Assembly: GCA_903827975.1 (NCBI GenBank) | Contig: CAIKKG010000005.1 | Location: 372-64,371, forward strand | From: an uncultured bacterium | GTDB lineage: Bacteria > Patescibacteriota > Minisyncoccia > UBA6257 > GWB1-50-10 | Direction of reading: 5' to 3' | DNA: 64,000 bases | Shown here: positions 13,931 to 25,361 of the stretch, one piece after another | How the letters are laid out: each line of letters starts with the position of its first letter | How positions within the stretch are numbered: the first letter of the stretch is position 1 | Notes under the pieces: model-generated | Told to the model about the DNA's origin: nothing | The model's database searches: none | What the model saw: the letters and a program-made list of their open reading frames with translations, nothing else | Program-made: the position numbers and the translations under genes

Positions 13931-14341
13931 TTATTCCGTGACTTTTATACTGCCTTTCATCATTGGATGAATAGTGCAGTAGTAATCAAATGACCCAATC
14001 TCGGAGAACGTAAAACTAAATGACTTTCCAGTCGTTAGTGTGCCCGAGTTAAGTGGTCCATCAGTATTAGAACTTGTGACTGTGTGTGGCGCCGAATCAT
14101 TATTAGTCCACGTTACTTTTGTACCAACCTTAATTGTTAGCGCGCCAGGATTAAATGAAAAATTCTTTATGTCTACTGTAATACCTGATGTCGATGCGGT
14201 TTCTGTTTGCGGCAACTGTGCACCCTTGATCGCAGAATCTTGAACGGTTGGGCCTGCACTAGGTAAATTTTTAGGAATAATAAGGTAGATTCCTATACCA
14301 ACAATTATCACTACAATGGTGGCTATGATTTTTTTTGTCAT
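13931..14341 (-). CDS. membrane-anchored cupredoxin (plastocyanin/azurin-like blue copper protein)
   Basis: N-terminal TM anchor; type-1 Cu ligands H...YYCTIHPMMKG (C-x2-H-x2-M). Confidence 0.8.
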   Translation of the reverse strand: MTKKIIATIVVIIVGIGIYLIIPKNLPSAGPTVQDSAIKGAQLPQTETASTSGITVDIKNFSFNPGALTIKVGTKVTWTNNDSAPHTVTSSNTDGPLNSGTLTTGKSFSFTFSEIGSFDYYCTIHPMMKGSIKVTE

Positions 14342-14466
14342 ACTCTAATTATATCATCCTTAAAAATAGTAATCTCATTCCTTATACTCATGAAAAATAG
14401 GCGCCTACGGTTCAAATCCTATTCTGTGTGTTTATTTGAAAATTGGAAATTAGACATTGGAAATTA

Positions 14467-14490
14467 AAAAACGCCTGACTGGCGTTTTTA
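14467..14490 (-). terminator. terminator downstream of tRNA-Lys (bidirectional hairpin acgcc-tgact-ggcgt flanked by A/T runs)
   Basis: perfect 5-bp stem with T-run on the minus strand. Confidence 0.55.
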
Positions 14491-14496
14491 TCCGTG

Positions 14497-14570
14497 TGCC
14501 CCCACTAGGATTTGAACCTAGGACCCACTGCTTAAAAGGCAGGTGCTCTACCAGGCTGAGCTATAGGGGC
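14497..14570 (-). tRNA. tRNA-Lys (anticodon TTT); CCA not encoded
   Basis: cloverleaf folds manually: acceptor GCCCCTA/TAGGGGC-like pairing, anticodon loop CUUUUAA, T-arm GGTTCAAATCC. Confidence 0.85.
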
Positions 14571-14697
14571 ATAAGCATCTCAAAGCTTTTGTTTTGAGCG
14601 TTTCTACTATACTAATTTTTTCATTACCTTGCAATATACTTGCCTTTACATCAAGGCTCTTTTTGATACAATAGCTTATGTTCCTTATGAACGGTAT

Positions 14698-14769
14698 TCC
14701 CCGGTAGCTCAGTGGTAGAGCGGCGCGCTGTTAACGCGATGGTCGTAGGTTCGAATCCTACCCGGGGAG
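14698..14769 (+). tRNA. tRNA-Asn (anticodon GTT); CCA not encoded
   Basis: acceptor TCCCCGG/CCGGGGA, D-arm GCTCAGTGGTAGAGC, anticodon loop CTGTTAA, T-arm GTAGGTTCGAATCCTAC. Confidence 0.85.
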
Positions 14770-14771
14770 CA
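14754..14771 (+). repeat. attL core: 3' end of tRNA-Asn (aatcctacccggggagca), repeated exactly at 24181..24198
   Basis: 18/18 identity between the two copies, same orientation. Confidence 0.65.
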
Positions 14772-16326
14772 CGATAGGTTGAGAGGGCACGAAAGTGCTC
14801 TCTTTTCCTTTATTAGAGCCACCTTTCTCCAGTTCGAGAGTTTCATTTACTCGTGGCATCCATTCTGCCAAAAAGCCGAAGGCTTTTGTGTATTCTGGCT
14901 TTATTGTTCCTTGCAAAACAGAGATGTTCGAGAAAGCGTAAGCCAACAGCAATCGGCGCTCTTCCGTAGTTGCTTTATCGCTCTGATAGATCTTCCCAGC
15001 TCTCAATGCCAGCTCGTGAATCGCCACCCCAACTTTGTAATATTCAGTATTGTCCGAATTTAACTTTCTAAGAGATTCAGTTAAGATCTCTCGCTCTTGT
15101 CCAAAACTCTCAACCCTCTGATCATAGAACTCTGTTGAAATTCTGCCATCCAATTTATCTTCGTACATAATCTTTAGACGTTGCTGGATGCGCTGGAGGC
15201 TCGCATTAATGCCATTCACCTGCGCTTCGTGAAGTTCGATCTCCTTGCCGTGGCTCTCCTTTAGGGCTTTGTTGAGAATACCCATAATCCTCTCGTTTTT
15301 AGGCGCTACAGAGCTAATTTGAGCCATTAGGTGGCTTTCTACGTCCTCCTGTCGTATGTACTTCCTGTCGATGGCTAGCTGTGCCTTGCACTGTTTACAC
15401 CCGCCATACCATTGTCCTTTTTGGAGTTCCCAAGTGACCGTCTTTTTACAACTGCCGCAAAAGACTTTGCCTCTTAATTCCTTGATGTGCTTAACGTGGT
15501 AAGGGGCGCTTGATCGGGTTAACTTGGCTTTAACCTGCTCAAACAAATCACGAGAAATAATGGGTTCTTGTTTACCTTCGTACTCTTTATCCTTCCATAT
15601 AAATTTACCGTAATAGAATGGGTCTGAAAGTAGCGCGTGGATTTTACTTTTCACAACTCTGCCACCTCCACGACTACGAAAGCCACTCTCGTACATTTTC
15701 TCTCCCAAAGAAACTGTTGAGTAATTTCCCGTCGCGTAAAGTGTAAACATCTCTCTTATGCGTGGAGCAACATTTTCATCTATCACGTGGATCTTGTGAC
15801 CTTTTTCACCAATGGTTTTATATCCTAACGGTGGTTTAGTTGGAAGCCAACCTTGTGCAGTCTTCTCTTTCTGACCTTTCTTAACTTCTTCCGATAAGTT
15901 ATTGGTATAGAAGCGAGCCATAGCCACTTTCATATCCCATACAAAGTTTTCGTGTGCTCGCGTGTTTTTACTGACAACGAAGTTTTCTTTTACGAAGTGG
16001 ATTTCACGGCTTGCTCCTTCTAATATCCAGTCACTCGCAGTTGCCGCATCCTTAAGATTACGCGTTAAACGATCAATCTTCTCACACAGAATGACATTGA
16101 TGTTTTTATTGGTGACGTATTGGATCATCTCAATAAACATCTTTCTTATTTGTTTTCCACTTGCTGACTCTGTAACTTTGTAGATCTTTACCAGCTCAAA
16201 ACCTTTTTGTTCTGCATAATCCTTCAAGAGTTTTTCTTGCGCCTCCAAAGAATATCCTGTTTCCTCTTGTTCTTTTGAGGATACACGAGCGTAGATTACT
16301 GCTTTAATTTTCTTAGTAGTTTCCAT
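14758..16326 (-). CDS. large serine recombinase (resolvase/invertase catalytic domain + recombinase domain + zinc-ribbon/coiled-coil)
   Basis: N-terminal AVIYARVSSKEQ catalytic-Ser motif; 522 aa; CGSCKK...CKQCK zinc ribbon; 3' end overlaps tRNA-Asn 3' end. Confidence 0.85.
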   Translation of the reverse strand: METTKKIKAVIYARVSSKEQEETGYSLEAQEKLLKDYAEQKGFELVKIYKVTESASGKQIRKMFIEMIQYVTNKNINVILCEKIDRLTRNLKDAATASDWILEGASREIHFVKENFVVSKNTRAHENFVWDMKVAMARFYTNNLSEEVKKGQKEKTAQGWLPTKPPLGYKTIGEKGHKIHVIDENVAPRIREMFTLYATGNYSTVSLGEKMYESGFRSRGGGRVVKSKIHALLSDPFYYGKFIWKDKEYEGKQEPIISRDLFEQVKAKLTRSSAPYHVKHIKELRGKVFCGSCKKTVTWELQKGQWYGGCKQCKAQLAIDRKYIRQEDVESHLMAQISSVAPKNERIMGILNKALKESHGKEIELHEAQVNGINASLQRIQQRLKIMYEDKLDGRISTEFYDQRVESFGQEREILTESLRKLNSDNTEYYKVGVAIHELALRAGKIYQSDKATTEERRLLLAYAFSNISVLQGTIKPEYTKAFGFLAEWMPRVNETLELEKGGSNKGKESTFVPSQPIVLPG

Positions 16327-16356
16327 ATTGGCTCAGTTTAATTTTAACAGTTAAAG

Positions 16357-16587
16357 TTAATCATTAGTAGTATTTTCAGTGATTCCATTTGGCACTCTCT
16401 TGAGTACCTTGTAATAGCAATCTTGAAGAAACATACACATATCCTCCTGAATCTCTTTCTTTACCTCCTGAAAGAACTCGTCTGTCATTTCACCTATGAC
16501 ATCAAGATCTTCTTCTAGGTAATCGCGGCTAAGGATTGCTACAACATCAGGATCACTCCAACGATAATTTTCTCTTTCTTCGGTCAT
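16357..16587 (-). CDS. hypothetical acidic small protein
   Basis: 76-aa ORF tightly spaced between the RHH gene and the recombinase. Confidence 0.35.
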   Translation of the reverse strand: MTEERENYRWSDPDVVAILSRDYLEEDLDVIGEMTDEFFQEVKKEIQEDMCMFLQDCYYKVLKRVPNGITENTTND

Positions 16588-16597
16588 ATTTTTTTAA

Positions 16598-16834
16598 TTA
16601 AGATTGATAATTTGAGAAGAAGTGTTTGCAGATCTCATCGAGTAAGAAAGAGATTATTGTTCCTTCCGACTTGGAGAATTCCTTGAGCTTCTTGTGCCAT
16701 TTTTCACTGACTCGCACCTGCACTGTCTTCCGCTTTTCAGCTTTGCGGGCAAAGTATTTTCTGACTGCTTCGTTGTCCGCTTTTGCCTGTTCTATATCGG
16801 TGGATGTATAGAGTTTTTTCTGCTTTGTCGACAT
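16598..16834 (-). CDS. putative ribbon-helix-helix (CopG/Arc-like) DNA-binding protein
   Basis: basic N-terminus then TVQVRVSEKWHKKLKEFSKSEGTIISFLLDEI beta-alpha-alpha pattern. Confidence 0.4.
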   Translation of the reverse strand: MSTKQKKLYTSTDIEQAKADNEAVRKYFARKAEKRKTVQVRVSEKWHKKLKEFSKSEGTIISFLLDEICKHFFSNYQS

Positions 16835-17136
16835 ATTTTAAGAACACTTCTATTTCCCTCATCCCTGTCCTTGATGAGAGGCTGATAATGCTGTGTACGA
16901 GATATCTATTGGGGTTTCGACCTTTTCACCCTCAAGCGGTGAACGCCCAATACAGTTGCTCCCTGATGTGCAAATGAGGTCGCCCGTTGAGAAGTGTTCA
17001 CTCAGAGCGGGCGCTGGTATTTACACACCAAGCGAGTTGCAGTCGGTTTTTTTCAGGAGACTTACTGACGACTCCTGACATCTCGGTTGTCTCAAGGTTC
17101 AAACACCCAGATCTGCCTCGAATATATCGGGGCAGA

Positions 17137-17361
17137 TTAAGATTTTTGAGGCTCTGGTCGACTGTCAATTTTTGCGAGCAAGTCAAAATACGCCACAGAG
17201 TTCAGCAAGATCTCCGACGCGTCTTTGAGAGTCAGGACTACACCAAATTCTTCTTTGATGGCATCCTGAAATTCCTTAATTGTTTGCTCACTGACCATAG
17301 GATCATTAGACACGTTGACCCTATACGCTTTAAATACGCTTTTAGTATCTTTTGCAGTCAA
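17137..17361 (-). CDS. hypothetical small protein (start uncertain: TTG at 17361 or internal ATG)
   Basis: protein-like composition on the minus strand, versus the Arg/Cys-rich overlapping plus-strand ORF. Confidence 0.3.
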   Translation of the reverse strand: MTAKDTKSVFKAYRVNVSNDPMVSEQTIKEFQDAIKEEFGVVLTLKDASEILLNSVAYFDLLAKIDSRPEPQKS

Positions 17362-17362
17362 A

Positions 17363-17385
17363 AAAAGCCCTATTTAGGGCAATGC
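17363..17385 (-). terminator. rho-independent terminator after the wHTH gene
   Basis: minus-strand gccctaaatagggc followed by TTTTTTT. Confidence 0.55.
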
Positions 17386-17417
17386 GAGGAGGATATTAAC
17401 AGGAGCAAGAGCAGACT

Positions 17418-18044
17418 TTAGACAAAAGTCTTAATTACCTTGTATGGAGATTTTATACCGTATCCACTGCTTGATTTAGATTCAATAATATCTACCTTCA
17501 AAAAGTGATCTATGTTCTTCTTGATTTTACCTATTTCTGACCGTACGTTCTTTAGATCTTTACCGCCCAGATACTCTGAAATATCCTCCGTTCTTTGTAG
17601 ACCTACATTGTCGACAAGGTAGGTTAAAATTTTTAGACGCTCGCTATCTTCTCCAATATGGTAACAAAGTTTACTTTTATCGCCGTGCCAAAGATCTCCA
17701 TTTTTATCTAAATAGAGAATTGTGCTCGTACCATTGTTGGTAAGCCCTATCTCGCTCACTAATTCGGAAGCCCTTTCTCTGAAATAGCTAGAGAACCAGA
17801 TGTTATAGATATCGTAGTCTGGCTCTTCTTCATATTCAGCATCCTTTCCTGACCAGAACTCATATTTCTCAATGAGTCCCTTTTCTTTCAGGTTATCCAT
17901 AATGCGAATGAGATCTGCTCCGCTAACACCCTCACTCAACAGGTCATCTGCCTTAACCTCGATATGCCGCACCGTTTCTGCTCCCAATAAATGGGTTTGA
18001 AGCAGGTTATTGAGAACTATTGATATCTTGGCGTTCGCATCCAT
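17418..18044 (-). CDS. putative transcriptional regulator with C-terminal OmpR/PhoB-type winged helix and no receiver domain
   Basis: C-terminus LKILTYLVDNVGLQRTEDISEYLG...VRSEIGKIKKNI...SGYGI fits the trans_reg_C pattern; 12 nt downstream of the Type IIG gene. Confidence 0.45.
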   Translation of the reverse strand: MDANAKISIVLNNLLQTHLLGAETVRHIEVKADDLLSEGVSGADLIRIMDNLKEKGLIEKYEFWSGKDAEYEEEPDYDIYNIWFSSYFRERASELVSEIGLTNNGTSTILYLDKNGDLWHGDKSKLCYHIGEDSERLKILTYLVDNVGLQRTEDISEYLGGKDLKNVRSEIGKIKKNIDHFLKVDIIESKSSSGYGIKSPYKVIKTFV

Positions 18045-18055
18045 ATCGTTAATGC

Positions 18056-20809
18056 CTAACGGTCATCTTTAACAGAGCTCCGAATTCTGTATAGGTCTAG
18101 TAAAGATTTCTTAATGCTTTCTTTCAAATTAAGAAGATTGATCGGGGTTAAGACAGCAACGTCCAAGGCATCACGATCAGTCTTTGTAAGCTCATCTTCA
18201 AGATTAAAAATACCCCTTCGTTTAATAGCATTAAACTTGTCGAGAATGTCCTTTTTTTGATCCTCGCTATATAGCGATGGATTGAGAATAAATAAATCCT
18301 TCTCTAGTTTGTCCTTACTAAGATCAAGAGCTCCCTCACCTCTGCCTGTGCCTAAAGCCTCAATGTAAAAAAGACCGAGAGTGCTATTCAGTAAGGCGTG
18401 ACAGAGCTCAACATCAGTGCTTAGATCTTTGCGCGTAAAACGAACTAGTCGTTGATTTACGAAGGTTGGTTCTGCAAACTTAGCGAAGAACAATCTATCG
18501 CCAAAGTTAATACTCGTGACAATTTCAGCCATTGTAGTGGGTGTCATTGTGTACCACTCTATATTTGGTCTTCGAAGTGCTAAAGGAAGGGCAATGCCCG
18601 TGCCGTTAGTTTTAGACTCAAAACTCTTTATCCAATTTATAGCCCCACTTTTACCAGCTCTTTCTAGCTCATCAATAGATTCAGTACAACAAAACGCCAC
18701 AGCGTCTGGTTCAGCAGTCAGGTTGGTTATGGATCGAGGGGTTCTTAAAACTGGCTTTAAAAATTCTGGCTCAATCGAGTGTGTTCCTTCGGGATAAAAC
18801 ATATCATCCCAGCCTCTGCGTTCTCCTCTTGCTATCTCAAATAGAGTGGAAGCTTTTACAAGGAACGGCTCGAGAGCAGTGATCCAATTATTATCAGTAA
18901 ATAAACTATTTAAATTTAAGCCAAATTTTTTGAGTGCAGTAATATCGGAATTAGAATACGTATTGATATGAATATCATTTTCATCAACCGCCTCTTTTAG
19001 TGAGACCAGAGCGGTAAGTTCACTCATATCTTGATCGCTTATGTGCTTAAGTGGTCGTTTGGTTACAACAAATTTAGTTTTTAGAGCCTCGTCTTTAGCG
19101 GGCGTTGACTTCTTCTTCAGGATCACGATATTTGTAACGACTTTGGCGTTATCAAACCATCTTCCACTGCCTGAAGTAATCACTGACTCGATGTGATAAA
19201 AAGCACTAAGATTTTCAAAGAAGCCTTCTCCCCATTTCGTTCCAAGCCACGAGTTTGAAATTATGAACGCCAAAGTCCCTTCATTCCTAAGAAGTTTCCA
19301 GAAATAAAATGGTAAATATGCATACAAATCACTCCTGCCATCTAGTGCAGTATTTGAACCTAAGGTAGCTTCTATAAAATCATTGATGCTTGGAGCTTCT
19401 GGATTTAGAACCTCCATATCCTCTTGTTGCACAAATGGTAAATTTGAAATAATGCAATCGAATTCAGGTATCTTTACCTTAAGCAAACTCCCATTGTAAG
19501 GATCGCGTAAATCAATTTCTTTACCGACTTGAATTTTTGTCGCGTCTTCTTTAAAAACCTGCAAGACTTTTCCCATTGCTTCGGGATCAAGCATATTAAA
19601 CATTGCCATCTGCAATGGAAGAGAAAACTTGTCACTTGCCCAAGTTGTTTTTAAGGCATCCTCAACACCCAAAACAGCTTTCTTTTGCACGAGAATCTCC
19701 CTTGCGATTGTTCCACTTCCACAACAAGGATCGATAGCTATCGCATTTTTATTCTTCATCGCAAGACCCACAATGAACTTTGCTAACTCATTTGGGGTTG
19801 TAAACTGTCCTGCAAACTTTCTTTTGTTTCTATATACGGTGTGACCGATTAGATCGTGCAAGAGAGTTTTTTCAATATTCTGGAAGTTCAGTGCCTTCAG
19901 AAAACCATTGAAATCAATCATATCCGCCCAAACTTCTGCGGAGATATATTTTTCGGTTGGCTGTGTTTGAAATATATTCCAAAAATCCACCTTCTGACTA
20001 ATGTCTTGAAAGACCTGCAACCCATCTTGCAAGGAAGTTGTTGAGTCTATTTGGTCAATTTTATTTGCGTCGGATTGGTAAGATTTTAAAATATGAGCAA
20101 AAAGAAATTTGTTTATGAGATAGATTAAGTTCATCCTTGAAAGAACGACAAACTTGTCGGTTTCTTCTGGGTGATCGTTCTTGGCATATCTCCACCACAG
20201 ATTTACCTCTGCTTCGATATCAGAATCCTTCACGGATTCATTTTTTAGATTCTCTATATAGCTTCCAATATTCCTATCAATCAACTTTGAGACTTGTTCG
20301 CTATTTAAAACACTAACTACAGACGTGGCTTTTATTTGTCCGCTTTGGATATAATCGTTTAAATCATTAAGTATTTTATGCAACTCAATCTTGATCTCAT
20401 CAGCTTTTTGCTCAACCTCATCTCGAACGTGAATGTGTGATAGCCCATCCCAAATCTTAACTTTTTCAAGAGATCCATCTTCATTAATTTTGTATAGAAC
20501 AGCAACTGAAACATTCCAAAGCAAGAAGCTGTTGAGAGAAAGTAGATCTGCCTTCTTTTTTGCATTAAGAATAAACTCTTGATCGTTGATATCCGTATCA
20601 GGCATCTTTAACTCCCAGCCTTGTACAATTCTTCCCTTTATTTCATCACCAAAAAGCAATACGTCAGGAAAAAGTGACTTCTTGTTTTCCTTCAACGTGT
20701 TTTCACCGCCCGCACGTTTTATTGAGGTGTTTTTAGTTGAAGCCCAGAGATTAATCTCGCTAATTAGATCTATTGCCCAACTTCTCTCATTGTAATTAAT
20801 TGTTGGCAT
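18056..20809 (-). CDS. Type IIG (MmeI-like) restriction-modification enzyme: N-terminal PD-ExK nuclease + gamma-class N6-adenine methyltransferase + C-terminal target-recognition region
   Basis: 917 aa (MmeI is ~919); N-terminal FPDVLLFGDE...GWELK (PD...ExK); motif X/I FTTPNELAKFIV...IDPCCGSGTIAREI; motif IV IISNLPFVQ (non-canonical NLPF). Confidence 0.65.
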   Translation of the reverse strand: MPTINYNERSWAIDLISEINLWASTKNTSIKRAGGENTLKENKKSLFPDVLLFGDEIKGRIVQGWELKMPDTDINDQEFILNAKKKADLLSLNSFLLWNVSVAVLYKINEDGSLEKVKIWDGLSHIHVRDEVEQKADEIKIELHKILNDLNDYIQSGQIKATSVVSVLNSEQVSKLIDRNIGSYIENLKNESVKDSDIEAEVNLWWRYAKNDHPEETDKFVVLSRMNLIYLINKFLFAHILKSYQSDANKIDQIDSTTSLQDGLQVFQDISQKVDFWNIFQTQPTEKYISAEVWADMIDFNGFLKALNFQNIEKTLLHDLIGHTVYRNKRKFAGQFTTPNELAKFIVGLAMKNKNAIAIDPCCGSGTIAREILVQKKAVLGVEDALKTTWASDKFSLPLQMAMFNMLDPEAMGKVLQVFKEDATKIQVGKEIDLRDPYNGSLLKVKIPEFDCIISNLPFVQQEDMEVLNPEAPSINDFIEATLGSNTALDGRSDLYAYLPFYFWKLLRNEGTLAFIISNSWLGTKWGEGFFENLSAFYHIESVITSGSGRWFDNAKVVTNIVILKKKSTPAKDEALKTKFVVTKRPLKHISDQDMSELTALVSLKEAVDENDIHINTYSNSDITALKKFGLNLNSLFTDNNWITALEPFLVKASTLFEIARGERRGWDDMFYPEGTHSIEPEFLKPVLRTPRSITNLTAEPDAVAFCCTESIDELERAGKSGAINWIKSFESKTNGTGIALPLALRRPNIEWYTMTPTTMAEIVTSINFGDRLFFAKFAEPTFVNQRLVRFTRKDLSTDVELCHALLNSTLGLFYIEALGTGRGEGALDLSKDKLEKDLFILNPSLYSEDQKKDILDKFNAIKRRGIFNLEDELTKTDRDALDVAVLTPINLLNLKESIKKSLLDLYRIRSSVKDDR

Positions 20810-21626
20810 ATGTTTTGATTTTCAACTTCGGATTTACTTCCTTGATGCGTTTTTCAGTAATAGAGATCAAATCTACTTTCTTTTTTTGATGCAGATCGGT
20901 CTCTTTATTTAGCTCTATTCCTACAAACTTTCTATCCTCCAAAGCAGCAGAGACCAAGAAACTTCCACTCCCAGAAGTATTATCTAGCACCAACTCACCT
21001 TTATTTGTGTATGTCCTGATCAAATACTGACCCAATTCAACTGGCTTTTGCGTAGGATGGTACACCTCACCTTCGCTTTCTGCTGTCTTAAAGTAAATAA
21101 CATCACTAGGGTAGCGCTTACCGTCACTTTTAACTTCTTGCGAGTTAAAATCACCATAACTGCCAGTAAGCTGGTTTTTCCTAAAGCCTTTGTTATACGG
21201 CTCACCCTCTGACATTTGAGGGTTGTAAGTAGGTTGGTATATTTTGTTTCTATAAAAAATACAAACATCCTCGTGTTTTCGTAGAGGCTGCTTTTTTGCA
21301 TTTAAGAAATTAGTCGCCTTGGATTTTACCCAAGAAAGTTTGTACTTAAATAGTGTTGTATTGCTCATAATAAGTTGAGCCGTAAAAACACCTTGTGAAG
21401 TAAGAGCGATGACGCCATTAGGCTTTATTATTCGTTCGTACTCCTTCCAAAGTTCTTCAAGGGGTATTATGCTGTCCCATTTGTTTTGGGTTGTACCGTA
21501 AGGCAAATCACACAAAATCATATCCACACTCTTATCTGGAAAGCGTGACATCACGCTCAAACAATCACCCTCAAATAGGCTGTTCTCTATTTGTTTTTTT
21601 GTAAGCTTTTTAGTTGGCATAATCAT
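20796..21626 (-). CDS. beta-class DNA methyltransferase (N6-adenine or N4-cytosine)
   Basis: motif IV DLPYGT precedes motif I NTSGSGSF (IV-then-I order means beta class); 276 aa. Confidence 0.8.
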   Translation of the reverse strand: MIMPTKKLTKKQIENSLFEGDCLSVMSRFPDKSVDMILCDLPYGTTQNKWDSIIPLEELWKEYERIIKPNGVIALTSQGVFTAQLIMSNTTLFKYKLSWVKSKATNFLNAKKQPLRKHEDVCIFYRNKIYQPTYNPQMSEGEPYNKGFRKNQLTGSYGDFNSQEVKSDGKRYPSDVIYFKTAESEGEVYHPTQKPVELGQYLIRTYTNKGELVLDNTSGSGSFLVSAALEDRKFVGIELNKETDLHQKKKVDLISITEKRIKEVNPKLKIKTYANN

Positions 21627-21796
21627 TTGATTGTTGTCTTTTTGAGAAAAATCTCAAACTCACTCTTGCCAATCCTGAACTCTTTTCCTATTTTATGAGC
21701 TCTAATTTTGTGGGCTTTGATGTAGCGATAAATGGTCATTATATTGACCTGCAACTTGTCCGCTAAATCTTGAGCTGTATAAAATTCTTTATTCAT
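21623..21796 (-). CDS. excisionase-family HTH DNA-binding protein (57 aa), possible R-M controller or Xis; not in the ORF track
   Basis: own translation MNKEFYTAQDLADKLQVNIMTIYRYIKAHKIRAHKIGKEFRIGKSEFEIFLKK matches the excisionase/MerR-type HTH pattern; ATGA overlaps with both neighbours. Confidence 0.5.
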   Translation of the reverse strand: MNKEFYTAQDLADKLQVNIMTIYRYIKAHKIRAHKIGKEFRIGKSEFEIFLKKTTIK

Positions 21797-22557
21797 ATTC
21801 TCTTGAGCTGTTCCATAACTCTACCCGCTAAATCCCTCTTATCAATCATAAATGCGTCCCACTTATTACTATCCTTCTTTTGCTTTCCAGAAACAAAACC
21901 GAGTAAGTCGTTTTTGTCTTTGTGCGCCATACGAATGAAGTCTGGAGCTGGCACAAACCAGACATAGTCGTGGACATCGCCCTTAGACGTGTCGAACAGA
22001 CAAAAAACAAAAGCCATTGAATAATTGTCTACTGCGCTTCGCTGTTTAACCGTTGCAACAAACGGACGACTAAAGTCTTCGCTAAAATTACTTTTAATCT
22101 GTATGTAAATAGATTTTAGACTCCCTTTTTCTTTTACAATGAGATCTATACCTTCGTCATCAGAGAGGGGGCGGTAGCACGAAAGATTAGTGCCATAGAG
22201 CAGGACTAGTTCCGAGACACGCGCTTCAACAATGTTTCCTTTTTGCACAGACATCAAAGTGTCTGAAACTTTATATTCTTTTTCTTCGTGCTCTTCGCTA
22301 AGTTCCTCCTCTTGCTTTATTGTCTTTATTGTCTCGTTTAGTGCAAAAGTACTTGGAGCTGTTTTAATAAAAAGTGAACCTGATCCTTTTTTATTTACAT
22401 CCACTACAAGTTGGGCGTTCATTGTAGCCGCAGGAGTTTTGCCAGCAGTTTTAAGCCAACCACGCTTTAGGGCAATTTTTGTAATCTCCTCGTAGTGGAG
22501 TGGTTTATCAGCTTCTTTGAGGATTTCATAGGCAACGCCCTTAAACGTGTTTACCAT
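21793..22557 (-). CDS. HARE-HTH domain fused to a PD-(D/E)xK restriction-endonuclease-like domain
   Basis: N-terminus FKGVAYEILKEADKPLHYEEITKIALKRGWLKTAGKTPAATMNAQL = HARE-HTH pattern; C-terminus DDEGIDLIVKEK...IQIK nuclease-like. Confidence 0.5.
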   Translation of the reverse strand: MVNTFKGVAYEILKEADKPLHYEEITKIALKRGWLKTAGKTPAATMNAQLVVDVNKKGSGSLFIKTAPSTFALNETIKTIKQEEELSEEHEEKEYKVSDTLMSVQKGNIVEARVSELVLLYGTNLSCYRPLSDDEGIDLIVKEKGSLKSIYIQIKSNFSEDFSRPFVATVKQRSAVDNYSMAFVFCLFDTSKGDVHDYVWFVPAPDFIRMAHKDKNDLLGFVSGKQKKDSNKWDAFMIDKRDLAGRVMEQLKRI

Positions 22558-22619
22558 AGATTTAATTATACTTTACAATGCTTTACACAACAATTAGATA
22601 TGTGGATAATGATTGATAT

Positions 22620-23435
22620 ATGGCACTTATAGCATCAAGAATATTGAGTGATCGGCTAGATTTTGAAACTCATCTCAAATACGCTTCTCGACTCGCCAAG
22701 CTTACAACAGGACTTTCTGTTACTTGTTCTATAAAACCTCTCTTAGTCAAATCAAAAATTACAAATCTTCAAAATAAATCAAAACTGATTGAGCTTACAA
22801 AAAAATCAATAAAGGATGAGCACGAGATAGTTCAGTTTGATAAGGAGTATTCCACTGCTTCGGTATTATGGTTACCCATTAAAACTTATTACTTAACCTA
22901 CCACCTGCTCTGCACAATCGAGTACCTTTTGGGTGGGAATGAGGGATCTTTGTCAGAAAAGCATTACAAGTGTATGGATATTTTCACAAAAAGGCTCTCG
23001 GATGGAACTTTAAAATTCAGTGAACCATTACTAAATAGTGTTTTTGATAAATCAATTCTAAATTTTCGAACAACATCAGGTGAACACCTAAGAACAGGTG
23101 TTTCGGATGAGATTATCTACAAATTGCTAATGAAAAAAGTTGCCAACGACAAGATAGAGAATTTTAAGGTCGCCAATGGCATACCAGACGTGAGAAGCCT
23201 TAAGAATAAGGAACGAGTGGAGAAATTTAAAAACTCTTTAACAGTATCCGTGTTCGACTTTTTTCACCTGATGCGACTAAGAATGAATTACCGAAACTTT
23301 GATTTTGTTGATTCTGTAACGTCATCGAATACAAAGGCGTATTTTGAGGAGTATTACAAAGCGTCAGGTTATTTCTATACAGCCCTCAATAACCTAAAAA
23401 ACAAGATAATAACTGACATTTCAGTTGGAAGCTGA
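22620..23435 (+). CDS. hypothetical protein (Lys-rich, helical; candidate abortive-infection/defence accessory)
   Basis: 271-aa ORF divergent from the R-M operon; N-terminal R-x5-H (RLDFETH); no confident family assignment. Confidence 0.35.
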   Translation: MALIASRILSDRLDFETHLKYASRLAKLTTGLSVTCSIKPLLVKSKITNLQNKSKLIELTKKSIKDEHEIVQFDKEYSTASVLWLPIKTYYLTYHLLCTIEYLLGGNEGSLSEKHYKCMDIFTKRLSDGTLKFSEPLLNSVFDKSILNFRTTSGEHLRTGVSDEIIYKLLMKKVANDKIENFKVANGIPDVRSLKNKERVEKFKNSLTVSVFDFFHLMRLRMNYRNFDFVDSVTSSNTKAYFEEYYKASGYFYTALNNLKNKIITDISVGS

Positions 23436-23939
23436 ATGTTCTAATTCGGTATACTTTTTCGCAAAATTACCCATCGCTCTTTTGATAAGTGCTATCTGTT
23501 CTGGGTCAATACTGTGTCTGTCTGATACTTCACCTGTGTGATGCACCTGCGCCCGTGTTGAGAACTCTAGGGGACGCTTACGTTCAAGATACTTTAAAGC
23601 AAGGTCAGCATCGTGCTCTGCCGCGGCTACAACACGTTTACGTAGGACAAAAGAGACTGCGTGCCGTAACTGATCAATTCTGTCCGAAAAGTCGGAGTTT
23701 TGCTTACAGAAATCGTAGTACGTATTTCTTGAAATGCCCGCGTAAAGACAGGACTCTTCAACCGTACAGTCATATACAAAAGCGTGTTCTAGTTTTCGGA
23801 CAACCTCCTGCGTCATTACAGTAGGTCTTCCTGTCCTACCGTGTTTCGGGGCAATCTTGCCCTTAAGCACATAGGCATTGCGCTTGGCGTACTGCTCAAC
23901 CTCACTTACTTTTGGAAATATTATCTTTTTTCTCGTCAT
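23421..23939 (-). CDS. phage terminase small subunit-like (HTH) protein
   Basis: GRPTVMTQEVVRKLEHAF...GISRNTYYDFCKQNSDF matches the TerS GRPTKYT...GIS..T.Y.W pattern. Confidence 0.5.
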   Translation of the reverse strand: MTRKKIIFPKVSEVEQYAKRNAYVLKGKIAPKHGRTGRPTVMTQEVVRKLEHAFVYDCTVEESCLYAGISRNTYYDFCKQNSDFSDRIDQLRHAVSFVLRKRVVAAAEHDADLALKYLERKRPLEFSTRAQVHHTGEVSDRHSIDPEQIALIKRAMGNFAKKYTELEHSASN

Positions 23940-24034
23940 ATAAAATTAGTTCGCCAAAGCCAACAACCTACCTATGGTTGCCACGTGATAGTCAGGATTA
24001 GGGTAGATACTGACCCAATCCATAGTTCGAAAAG

Positions 24035-24146
24035 CGTCCCTCCACGCGAGCTAATGAAAATTAAAACGGCATAAATGCCGTTTTAGTTTTTATCTCGGGT
24101 AGTATTCGAACCGAAGGTGCCCAAAAACAAAGAGCTGAGCGATTAT
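24035..24146 (+). repeat. ~110-bp repeat, copy A (inside island, next to attR); contains hairpin aaaacggcat..atgccgtttt and an inverted tRNA-Asn 3'-like segment ctcgggtagtattcgaacc
   Basis: near-identical to 25006..25140. Confidence 0.65.
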
Positions 24147-24180
24147 GTTTTTGGCGCATCTCGACCGAAGAGAGAGGCGA

Positions 24181-24198
24181 AATCCTACCCGGGGAGCA
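24181..24198 (+). repeat. attR core: exact copy of tRNA-Asn 3' 18 nt
   Basis: aatcctacccggggagca. Confidence 0.65.
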
Positions 24199-24261
24199 AA
24201 ATTTTAAACCATATTTTATAATGGTTATTTTTTGGAGGTTAGTAGAAGCTCGAACCTAGTA

Positions 24262-24267
24262 TATAAT
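24262..24267 (+). promoter_or_regulatory. -10 hexamer TATAAT 7 nt upstream of ATG 24275 (leaderless start)
   Basis: spacing -10 to ATG = 7 nt, no SD. Confidence 0.4.
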
Positions 24268-24274
24268 ACATGGT

Positions 24275-24967
24275 ATGACAAAAAATAATAAAATAATTTA
24301 TTTGATAATTGTAATTGCGATATTTGCATTTACTTTTTTAATTTGGAGAACTGGAGTTTTTAATAATTATCTTCCATTTTTTCTTACTACTGACGGTTGG
24401 AATAAAAATGAACGTGAAATAAATAAACTAAATAATAATTTAGAACCCTCAAGAGAACCTTATCCAGATTGTAAATGGAAAAAAGTAATTGGTGCTGGTC
24501 TCGAAATTTGGGGTCAATCTTGTGATTATGGAGATAAAAAATTAGAAGTTAATGCAAGTGAGACATTGCCAGGAATGTTTTTGGAAGATGTTACCAAAGG
24601 AAGCCCTGTTGCAATAGAACAATTAATTCAAATTTTTAATTTAGAAAATAAATCTATTGATAGTGTCATTCCATTATTATCTGATAGTAAAGATTGGAAA
24701 GTTACAGATAAATGTATTTTTACAAAAGTTTCTATTAATCGAAGTGACGTCGCTAGGTATACATTAATGCCAACAGGGGCTGCTTTAAAAAAATTCGAGA
24801 GTGACGGTAAGAATGAACCCATAACAAGTACTTGTGCGGGATACGGTATGGGTAACAGTGGGGTTCAGTATTTTGAAATATATAATTCAAACCCTAATAA
24901 AGTTTTATTTATAAATGCTGGACAAGAACTACCTATGTTTGATGAAAATACTATTGTTGTTAAATAA
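24275..24967 (+). CDS. hypothetical membrane-anchored/secreted protein, very AT-rich (likely acquired cargo)
   Basis: N-terminal TM IIYLIIVIAIFAFTFLIW; flanked by repeats A and B. Confidence 0.45.
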   Translation: MTKNNKIIYLIIVIAIFAFTFLIWRTGVFNNYLPFFLTTDGWNKNEREINKLNNNLEPSREPYPDCKWKKVIGAGLEIWGQSCDYGDKKLEVNASETLPGMFLEDVTKGSPVAIEQLIQIFNLENKSIDSVIPLLSDSKDWKVTDKCIFTKVSINRSDVARYTLMPTGAALKKFESDGKNEPITSTCAGYGMGNSGVQYFEIYNSNPNKVLFINAGQELPMFDENTIVVK

Positions 24968-25005
24968 TTATGTACTATTGTTCTTCAACAATACTTTTCC
25001 GAACA

Positions 25006-25140
25006 TCGTCCCACTTGCGGAGCTAATGAAAATTAAAACGGCATTTACGCCGTTTTAATTTTTATCTCGGGTAGTATTCGAACCTTTTACAGTAGTACTT
25101 GAAGATTGGGTGAATTGTACCAATAGAGCTGAGTGATATA
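25006..25140 (+). repeat. ~110-bp repeat, copy B (outside island)
   Basis: shares agctaatgaaaattaaaacggcat and tttttatctcgggtagtattcgaacc blocks and the downstream agagctgag[c/t]gat block with copy A. Confidence 0.65.
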
Positions 25141-25142
25141 CT
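25134..25142 (+). promoter_or_regulatory. extended -10 TGATATACT 6 nt upstream of ATG 25149 (leaderless)
   Basis: TGn + TATACT; no SD. Confidence 0.4.
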
Positions 25143-25148
25143 CATATC

Positions 25149-25361
25149 ATGCAAAAGATAGCCACAAATGTATTTATCTACTCATCAATTGTTTTTGGTA
25201 TTGTTGGAGTTTTAATGATTTTGACACTGCCTGATGGTGGTGATGCCGCGAAATCGGGCCTGAACCTAATACTATCAAGACTTCTATCTGCAACAGTTTT
25301 TGTTATTTTACCGTCATTTGCGCTTAGTATTGCTGGTAAGTACCTGGGTGATAAATCATAG
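25149..25361 (+). CDS. small membrane protein (2 TM)
   Basis: 70 aa, two hydrophobic helices; leaderless promoter context. Confidence 0.4.
   Translation: MQKIATNVFIYSSIVFGIVGVLMILTLPDGGDAAKSGLNLILSRLLSATVFVILPSFALSIAGKYLGDKS

Follow-up and report, generated by a model that had tools for sequence, protein, structure and literature searches.

A serine-recombinase island, a small tRNA-linked element and the probable stacking of insertions behind a tRNA-Asn gene of an uncultured Patescibacteriota bacterium

What produces two long direct repeats behind a single tRNA gene, each with an inverted fragment of that tRNA? The question is raised by a stretch of 64,000 nucleotides (nt), referred to below as the window, from an uncultured bacterium of the Patescibacteriota (GenBank assembly GCA_903827975.1, contig CAIKKG010000005.1, positions 372 to 64,371), in which a tRNA-Asn gene is followed by an island with restriction-modification genes and by two repeat copies, A and B. 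A preliminary description of the sequence placed copy A inside the island, took a second copy of the tRNA 3' end as the right attachment site (attR), and proposed either accretion of successive elements at one tRNA or a small repeat-bounded cassette carrying a 230-amino-acid (aa) membrane protein. Comparison with other strains fixes the ends of the island and the class of its enzyme, reveals several variants of the locus, and uncovers behind the tRNA a small, structured element of about 105 nt that is linked to tRNA genes. In our reading, A and B are probably two generations of DNA behind tRNA-Asn, stacked by repeated insertions at the tRNA.

The repeats are present in the sequence and are not a product of chance. 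Within the window, the sole long direct repeat listed by the repeat finder joins 24028-24112 (copy A) to 25000-25084 (copy B) over 85 nt without gaps, with 73 of 85 positions identical (86%); in the core, which runs from GAGC to GAACC, 61 of 65 positions agree. Each copy contains a hairpin, AAAACGGC..GCCGTTTT, at 24063-24084 in A and at 25035-25056 in B, a pattern matched twice in the window where 0.02 matches are expected. The two hairpins differ by a loop change and one stem mismatch, and not by the compensatory changes that had been reported. The inverted tRNA fragment was read correctly from the outset: the 19-mer CTCGGGTAGTATTCGAACC is found in both copies, and its reverse complement matches only these two sites and, with 2 mismatches, the 3' end of tRNA-Asn (0 matches expected by chance). 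Past the cores, the tails of A and B have CAA(T)AGAGCTGAGYGAT in common, which was equalled by 2 of 2000 shuffles. In addition, the 18-mer AATCCTACCCGGGGAGCA occurs at 14754-14771 and, as an exact copy unexpected by chance, at 24181-24198. The tRNA-Asn gene (anticodon GTT), which is the integration target, was located by ARAGORN at 14698-14770 on the plus strand and is identical across all strain contigs; tRNA-Lys lies at 14496-14570 on the minus strand. These are the only two true tRNAs given by ARAGORN in the window, and the Rfam tRNA model found no hit in 23950-25250 with expectation values (E) up to 10. A tRNA pseudogene in the tails and inverted piece, on either strand, was rejected on these grounds and because the T stem cannot form.

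The limits of the island can be read from contigs that lack it. Such empty-site contigs, which come from other samples, were found by looking up the 230-aa protein in public assemblies. One of them (L002) matches the window with zero mismatches over 14654-14770, diverges, and matches again from 24048, with zero mismatches for 3,562 bases; another (L001) has 8 mismatches over the 10.9-kb right flank. In both, the junction reads tRNA-Asn...GGGGAGC|TAATGAAAATT.... These contigs place the island at 14771-24051 (9,281 bp when one GAGC is counted), with crossover cores GAGC on the plus strand at 14767-14770 (attL) and 24048-24051 (attR), and the DNA at 14771-24047 is absent from L001, L002, L009 and L038. 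The empty site (attB) reads CCCGGG-GAGC-TAATGAAA, attL reads CCCGGG-GAGC-ACGATAGG and attR reads TCCACGC-GAGC-TAATGAAA, so that GAGC is the only sequence common to attL and attR; a short core of this kind is what a serine recombinase leaves. Copy A therefore does not lie inside the island. Only its first 20 nt, 24028-24047, are island DNA, as part of the right end (24018-24047, plus strand, the P arm derived from attP), which is identical at 21 of 30 positions to the right end of the island in L003. Everything from 24048 on is kept in island-free strains, and the supposed attR at 24181-24198 is present in L001, L002 and L038.

The enzyme agrees with these ends. At 14758-16326 on the minus strand lies a gene for a large serine recombinase of 522 aa, whose frame crosses attL into the tRNA. 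Pfam assigns to it the N-terminal catalytic domain Resolvase (PF00239, E 4e-26) and the Recombinase domain (PF07508, E 3.7e-14), and the zinc ribbon (Zn_ribbon_recom, PF13408) is seen at 21.4 bits, under its cut-off of 25.3. Judged from this sequence, and from the precision with which the identical flanks of L002 restore the empty site, a large serine recombinase inserted the island at the 4-bp GAGC core at the end of tRNA-Asn. Candidate half-sites of attP, picked by eye, are CGTCCCTCCAC to the left of GAGC and, in inverted form, CGTGCCCTCTCAAC to the right of it, at unequal distances. The recombinase frame spans the attachment site: it encodes 522 aa in the integrated state, with the stop inside the tRNA, and 553 aa in the reconstructed circle, and its C-terminal tail is where a homologue with 78% identity differs. 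That homologue belongs to a different island of ~17 kb in GCA_026396755.1, which has the same GAGC junctions, and GCA_037131435.1 has a third island in the same place. All three tRNA-Asn islands, in closely related strains, bear restriction or defence-type genes. In the window, the island genes other than the recombinase include matches to Eco57I/N6_Mtase, N6_N4_Mtase and HARE-HTH in Pfam, i.e., an Eco57I-like enzyme, a methylase and a HARE-HTH nuclease-like protein; the island of L003 and L010 has an MmeI-like enzyme and an SNF2/PLD helicase, and that of L005 and L006 has type I-like methylase and helicase subunits and a 1174-aa LexA-domain protein. Several metagenome contigs, among them L015 (at its end) and L008 (at its start), break exactly at GGGGAGC, as would be expected if the samples mix variants that branch at this junction.

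Further variants of the locus, found through look-ups of flanking proteins in metagenome assemblies, reveal how the DNA between the tRNA and the neighbouring 70-aa membrane-protein gene (25149-25361, plus strand; the first gene common to all variants) is put together. In L009, tRNA-Asn and GAGC are followed by a single trailer (hairpin and inverted piece), by the tail of copy B (tail B) and by the 70-aa gene; the 230-aa gene and the 18-mer are missing. L002 and L001 have the tRNA, GAGC, copy A with its tail, the 18-mer, a terminator, the 230-aa gene, a flank, GAGC, copy B, tail B and the 70-aa gene, and the window and L004 have this layout plus the 9.28-kb island. The part of copy A that stands directly behind the tRNA in the empty-site contigs is a trailer or spacer (24052-24091, plus strand) with a two-way terminator-like hairpin (24063-24084). 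L038 has the L002 layout with another terminator and a TspO gene in place of the 230-aa segment, between borders identical to those of L002 (left ...GGGGAGCA, right AACATCGTCCCACTTGCG-GAGC). L014 and L039 also carry TspO, and in them the stretch from the tRNA to the 18-mer keeps the design in a clearly distinct version, with a 35% difference at the same spot between near-identical strains. The variable segment of the window (24199-24989, plus strand) consists of a terminator-like hairpin (24206-24233) and the 230-aa gene (24275-24967), and has the lowest GC content of the neighbourhood (0.30). The preliminary description had called for a comparison of strains across the interval between the copies, and the answer is that this interval holds the 230-aa gene, holds TspO (L038, L039) or is absent (L009, L003, L005). 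The 972-bp unit bounded by the repeats is dispensable, the gene inside it is exchangeable, and the tRNA-adjacent piece is exchangeable independently of the gene, as the window-type element occurs with either the 230-aa gene or TspO and the L014 type occurs with TspO. In L003 and L005, other islands abut a single trailer. The single core of L009 and L003 is identical to that of copy A, yet it is joined to tail B, and such a combination would arise by recombination between A and B within their last 26 identical bases. The early suggestion of accretion at one tRNA or of a repeat-bounded cassette thus holds insofar as the 972-bp unit and a separate 9.3-kb island vary by strain, whereas its boundaries and its attR were wrong.

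The tRNA-adjacent piece is a complete copy of a small element (24092-24197, plus strand), which is recognised by its covariation, by its fold and by a covariance-model score of 94.2 bits (E about 1e-21). It has four parts: an inverted copy of the tRNA-Asn 3' end (24094-24112), a long hairpin, P2 (24116-24160), a short hairpin with a conserved box, TCGACCRAAGRRAGAGGC (24159-24180), and a direct copy of the tRNA 3' end (24181-24197/8). The supposed attR is this terminal direct repeat. Two coding features assigned to copy A also find another place here: the promoter-like gagYgatat is the loop of the conserved long hairpin, where a consensus scan finds no promoter, and the 19-codon gene remnant corresponds to the box and the direct repeat, whose nucleotide sequence is conserved across different tRNAs. 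The form GYGCRTYTCGACCRAAGRRAGAGGC of the box is common to the window, the L014 version and an extra insert behind tRNA-Lys in the contig L011. The box pattern was scanned against one genome per species (185,579 species), metagenomes of the Joint Genome Institute and 2.9 million viral contigs. The species genomes yielded nine stretches with ten copies, all in metagenome-assembled genomes (MAGs) of Candidatus Saccharibacteria or Paceibacterota/Paceibacteria, and the metagenomes yielded six further stretches. None was found in the 2.9 million viral contigs, and a phage origin was rejected on this result. With the covariance model, 14 further distinct copies were recovered, together with duplicates in other assemblies, from Saccharibacteria and Paceibacteria MAGs and unnamed metagenome contigs.

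Throughout these genomes, the element is linked to tRNA genes. In the nine genome and six metagenome stretches, every copy lies 70-130 nt downstream of a tRNA and on its strand, and the tRNAs concerned are Lys, Arg-GCG, Arg-TCT, Asn, Tyr, a Val-TAC-adjacent Arg and Val-GAC. All 17 strong copies are downstream of a tRNA on the same strand, and the window has no strong copy elsewhere. The order of parts is uniform. The tRNA is followed by a short spacer, often with a terminator hairpin, then by an inverted segment that copies the T-loop and T-stem of the tRNA together with part of its acceptor and, in most copies, follows the T-stem of its own tRNA; next come GAACCGTAGGYGCC, an A/T-rich hairpin and the box, and finally a direct copy of the tRNA 3' end, which starts in the T-loop, at times reaches a few bases beyond the tRNA and at times is decayed. 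Of 15 copies, 8 have an inverted piece whose best-scoring tRNA is its own (with 2 ties), and for the direct repeat the number is 12. Two copies occur in one genome in L022, where, in the copy at 2310-2414, the inverted piece pairs perfectly with the direct repeat (TACC) and not with the present tRNA (TGCC), which hints that the two tRNA copies borne by an element are kept matched to each other. No integrase lies within about 3 kb at nine loci. In Rfam 15 there is no matching family; searches of the window region, of the nine genome loci and of L018 in close-up yielded nothing beyond tRNAs and hits at chance level, and known ribozymes and small RNAs were rejected accordingly. Full-text literature searches brought up no description of it. 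The ~105-nt sequence is apparently an undescribed, small, conserved and folded DNA or RNA element, situated behind tRNA genes in several bacteria of the candidate phyla radiation.

The fold of the element is conserved more strictly than its letters. RNAalifold gave a three-helix structure, and the covariance model R1 was built from 13 copies, with the window copy in the seed alignment; copies outside the seed score 79-108 bits. Among the 17 distinct copies on which pairs were counted, 95.9% of the cells are paired, a share that falls to about 45% once the partners are slid; changes on both sides are seen in 17 of the 29 pairs. Of 500 shuffles, none reached the observed pairing values (one did for the count of pair types). 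In the window, for example, the P2 stem is flipped from A/T to T/A and still pairs (CCAAAAAC/GTTTTTGG vs. CCTATTTTT/AAAAATAGG in other copies). An invariant G-U pair and an alternation of G-U with G-C fit the tRNA-sense strand only, on which the window copy folds with -39.1 kcal/mol (z -3.6), compared with -31.6 kcal/mol (z -1.6) on the other strand. Inverted and direct tRNA copies together make up the closing helix, in which pairing reaches 76% and many of the pair types follow the identity of the tRNA. Two helix tips (24133-24142 and 24163-24171 in the window, and likewise in other copies) are C-GAA-G or C-GNA-G triloops, GCGAAGC and CCGAAGG, and a third, ACGAAGT, is seen in the spacers of L018 and L024. 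The GAA-triloop motif forms unusually stable DNA mini-hairpins.

If copy A runs into such an element, what is copy B? The model matches the 64-kb window at three places only: the strong copy at 94.2 bits, copy B and the trailer of tRNA-Lys. The match in copy B (25064-25129) is weak (12.7 bits, E 0.3). Copy B (25020-25148, plus strand) is an older trailer, comprising its hairpin, the inverted tRNA copy at 25066-25084 and a decayed tail in which part of the P2 loop survives, and its part at 25064-25148 has the inverted copy and the P2-loop piece without stems, box or direct repeat. Because it keeps the hairpin, the inverted piece and a loop fragment but has lost the rest, copy B appears to be an old and degraded representative of the same lineage, which is specific to tRNA-Asn; in L009, tail B, behind its A-type core, directly follows the tRNA. 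The left flank of copy B with its GAGC (24990-25023, plus strand) resembles the right end of a serine-recombinase island. It is identical at 13 of 24 positions to the right end of the window island, in register with GAGC, a level reached by only 3 of 425 GAGC sites in the window, one of which is the island end itself, and at 15 of 30 positions to the right end of the L005 island; its last 22 nt also close the TspO variant. From its sequence, the flank looks like a relic attR; reading it as a decayed tRNA 3' end instead would require 4-5 nt of gaps. The whole segment, 24199-25023, has this att-like right flank and a left border that is exactly a tRNA-end copy plus GAGCA, and the DNA inside that border is, by eye, unlike the left ends of islands.

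Stacking is also seen elsewhere. The trailer of tRNA-Lys (14339-14489, minus strand) consists of a terminator, the 3' end of this tRNA copied in inverse orientation (plus-strand positions 14400-14430) and a decayed element of the same family (14339-14429, minus strand), including the inverted tRNA-Lys 3' copy, which the model matches weakly (11.3 bits, E 0.7). In the strain contig L011, a complete extra element (93-197; 106.7 bits) with a 16-nt copy of the tRNA-Lys 3' end lies behind the same tRNA; this scaffold contains a run of N, which makes repeat lengths there uncertain. Similarly, L023 has a strong copy with a decayed one directly behind it (20.8 bits).

These observations can be joined into a probable history of the locus, in which the states of the strains are seen directly and the steps between them are inferred. 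Each trailer combines a terminator hairpin with an inverted 3' end of the tRNA that it follows. In L009, the simplest strain, a single trailer stands between the tRNA and the 70-aa gene. In the lineage of the window, the complete ~105-nt element stands beside the tRNA and ends in the direct 3' copy of 17-18 nt; a one-gene segment (230-aa or TspO) and the older trailer, copy B, come next, and in part of the population the 9.28-kb island is inserted at the GAGC between the tRNA end and the newer trailer. The small element may insert by site-specific recombination in the part of its own tRNA between the T-loop and the 3' end; such an insertion would bring a new tRNA end, terminator and trailer, and push the old end (the 18-mer) and the old trailer downstream. 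An earlier insert with its own recombinase, at the older GAGC, may have left the att-like flank of copy B, in a slot now taken by the 230-aa gene or TspO. Since the new trailer recreates the succession of tRNA end, GAGC and trailer, it would constitute a fresh attB for serine-recombinase islands, which the 9.28-kb island would then have used. Finally, recombination between the near-identical cores could delete 972 bp and give the one-copy state with an A-type core.

Several points weigh against this history. The left ends of the 230-aa and TspO segments are unlike those of the islands, only the right flank being att-like, and the flank of copy B could be a decayed tRNA 3' end if 4-5 nt of gaps are granted. 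No recombinase for the small element was found beside any copy examined, and no viral contig has the element; with no linked recombinase, the case for its mobility rests on presence and absence among strains, on the direct repeats and on the occurrence of different element types at one site. The model matches to copy B and the tRNA-Lys trailer are weak (E 0.3-0.7), and all comparison DNA comes from metagenome assembly.

Other explanations account for part of the evidence. The ~105-nt element might be chiefly a functional, tRNA-like RNA, with a closing helix that reproduces the acceptor and T stems of the tRNA next to it, and the repeats might then record the birth and decay of such genes. The strong covariation, the G-U pairs that fit only the better-folding tRNA-sense strand and the closing helix that tracks tRNA identity all agree with this proposal. 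However, a terminator-like hairpin with a T run stands between tRNA and element in 9 of 15 copies (counted by eye) and no promoter is evident; a terminator in this position argues against simple co-transcription. Moreover, several copies that are otherwise intact have a decayed 3' direct repeat, presence and absence among near-identical strains are easier to obtain through mobility, and the GAA-triloop mini-hairpins fit single-stranded DNA at least equally well, all of which leaves a chiefly RNA function rather unlikely. We would give about the same modest chance to the proposal that the 972-bp unit is itself mobile, as a circle-forming cassette (the remainder of the element, one gene and one core) that moves through homologous or site-specific recombination at the 65-bp core. 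Indeed, L009 and L003 lack exactly one repeat unit and the intervening DNA relative to L002, with the A-type core on tail B, alternative genes lie between the same borders, and the GC content of the window segment is low (0.30). Nevertheless, element type and gene reassort independently, which means that the unit is not inherited as one block, and elsewhere the small element occurs without a second core or gene.

That the tRNA trailer was simply duplicated in tandem, through slippage or unequal crossing-over, and later drifted, with no mobile element apart from the 9.3-kb island, is considerably less probable: tandem direct repeats with divergent fill do resemble old duplications, but the fill beside copy A is a conserved, covarying element found in distant genomes and at other tRNAs, it ends in a clean tRNA 3' copy, and near-identical strains have an element there that differs by 35%. 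Least tenable of all is the map first drawn, with a tRNA island bounded by the 18-bp repeat (attL in the tRNA, attR at 24181-24198), A as island DNA and B as the remnant of a sister island, since the 18-nt repeat, although exact and unexpected by chance, is refuted as a boundary by the empty site, in which island-free contigs keep 24048-24198 joined directly to the tRNA, and the island belongs to a serine recombinase, with 4 bp of shared core.

How does the locus compare with known systems? The island resembles those of large serine recombinases (the phiC31, Bxb1 and A118 integrases, and the ccr enzymes of SCCmec) in having an edge recombinase with resolvase, recombinase and zinc-ribbon domains, in its precise insertion with few shared bases (GAGC) and an intact empty site, and in its restriction-modification cargo. 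It differs in its target, which comprises the extreme end of a tRNA gene and the trailer behind it, in the frame of its enzyme, which crosses the junction, and in having two copies of the site on offer, a consequence of the duplicated trailer. Tandem accretion and cis-mobilizable elements (CIMEs) beside integrative and conjugative elements have been described for ICESt1/ICESt3 of Streptococcus thermophilus. As in CIMEs, a short gene segment without its own recombinase lies at a single attachment site beside an element that has one, a fresh proximal attachment site is kept, and the content varies by strain; unlike in CIMEs, only the right border of the small segment is att-like, and the duplicated site comes from a separate ~105-nt tRNA-linked element and not from the att repeat of the island.

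The small element itself shares features with several classes. Integrative elements that use tyrosine integrases at the T-loop sublocation of tRNA genes likewise leave the tRNA intact, have a 16-24-nt 3' copy from the T-loop at their far end and bring their own terminator, whereas the insert described here is only about 110-170 bp long, has no integrase gene nearby and combines a structured core with an inverted copy of the target. Miniature inverted-repeat transposable elements (MITEs) are also short, non-coding, present in several copies per genome (two in L022) and variably present. The preliminary description had considered a genome-wide MITE with no link to tRNA; however, the element is without terminal inverted repeats of its own, stands always behind a tRNA (17 of 17 strong copies, with none elsewhere in the window) in one orientation, and has a tRNA-specific flanking repeat of 16-24 nt in place of a short fixed duplication, and it was rejected as a MITE. 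In integron attC sites and the attP(+) of CTX phage, as here, an inverted copy can pair with a direct copy into a target-mimicking duplex (with two bulged A's in the present case), and covariation preserves the fold and not the sequence; in contrast, no IntI- or Xer-type enzyme is linked to the element, its target is a tRNA gene, and the relation is one of likeness only. By this resemblance alone, the order of direct copy, loop, inverted copy, body and direct copy would be the one left by insertion of a folded single strand, and the strand-specific wobble pairs and GAA-triloop mini-hairpins fit such a picture. It is tempting, though at this stage tentative and rather less likely than the stacking itself, to regard the element as a new class of non-autonomous mobile element of candidate-phyla-radiation bacteria that is specific for tRNA genes, whose attachment site would be a folded single strand with inverted and direct copies mimicking the T-loop-to-acceptor duplex (a template of its own target), and which would renew the site of serine-recombinase defence islands as a by-product; in a related reading, it would give rise to an RNA that mimics a tRNA.

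The genes in the slot between the repeats appear to have come from elsewhere. The 230-aa protein has 17 relatives, and homologues with 86% and 45% identity lie elsewhere amid ordinary genes, on which ground the gene was rejected as regular island cargo; one 86% homologue is encoded at a distance of 1.8 kb from another tRNA-Asn, around which neither the element nor att-like features occur. Some relatives (P0003-P0006) have an extra N-terminal domain, PF09864 or PF13127, and, by comparison with them, the 230-aa protein corresponds to the C-terminal module of a small protein family with unassigned function. TspO is common in Parcubacteria at 80-90% identity (the named relatives are Candidatus Taylorbacteria and similar) and adjoins DUF2177 there, with no tRNA nearby, which led us to reject TspO as the ancestral neighbour of the tRNA. 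Taken with the distribution of the element, these TspO relatives point to an organism of Parcubacteria type as the probable source of the window. Given these locations of their homologues, both genes look relocated into the slot. In the relatives, TspO directly precedes DUF2177 (L040 and L041), and in the present species the two positions are ~5.4 kb apart. The block between them (25149 to ~30600 in the window) holds the 70-aa gene, a 128-aa gene, a sigma-70 family factor, a membrane protein, an acyltransferase and others, and may itself be an old insertion.

The corrected map, with a 4-bp serine-recombinase core in place of an 18-bp tRNA repeat, bears on more than this locus, as automated island callers that use tRNA 3' repeats would err in the same way wherever the element occurs. 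The serine-recombinase defence island and the stacking at a tRNA are known parts; what is unfamiliar is a structured tRNA-linked element that creates both the repeat and a false attR. In this uncultivated and probably Parcubacteria-type bacterium, the tRNA-Asn site is a slot for interchangeable defence islands and single genes, and close strains (0-8 mismatches in 3.6-11 kb of compared flank) display its intermediate states. If the element is mobile, it would explain how one tRNA keeps offering a fresh attachment site, and would provide a small, tractable system for studying how target specificity gets copied into an element.

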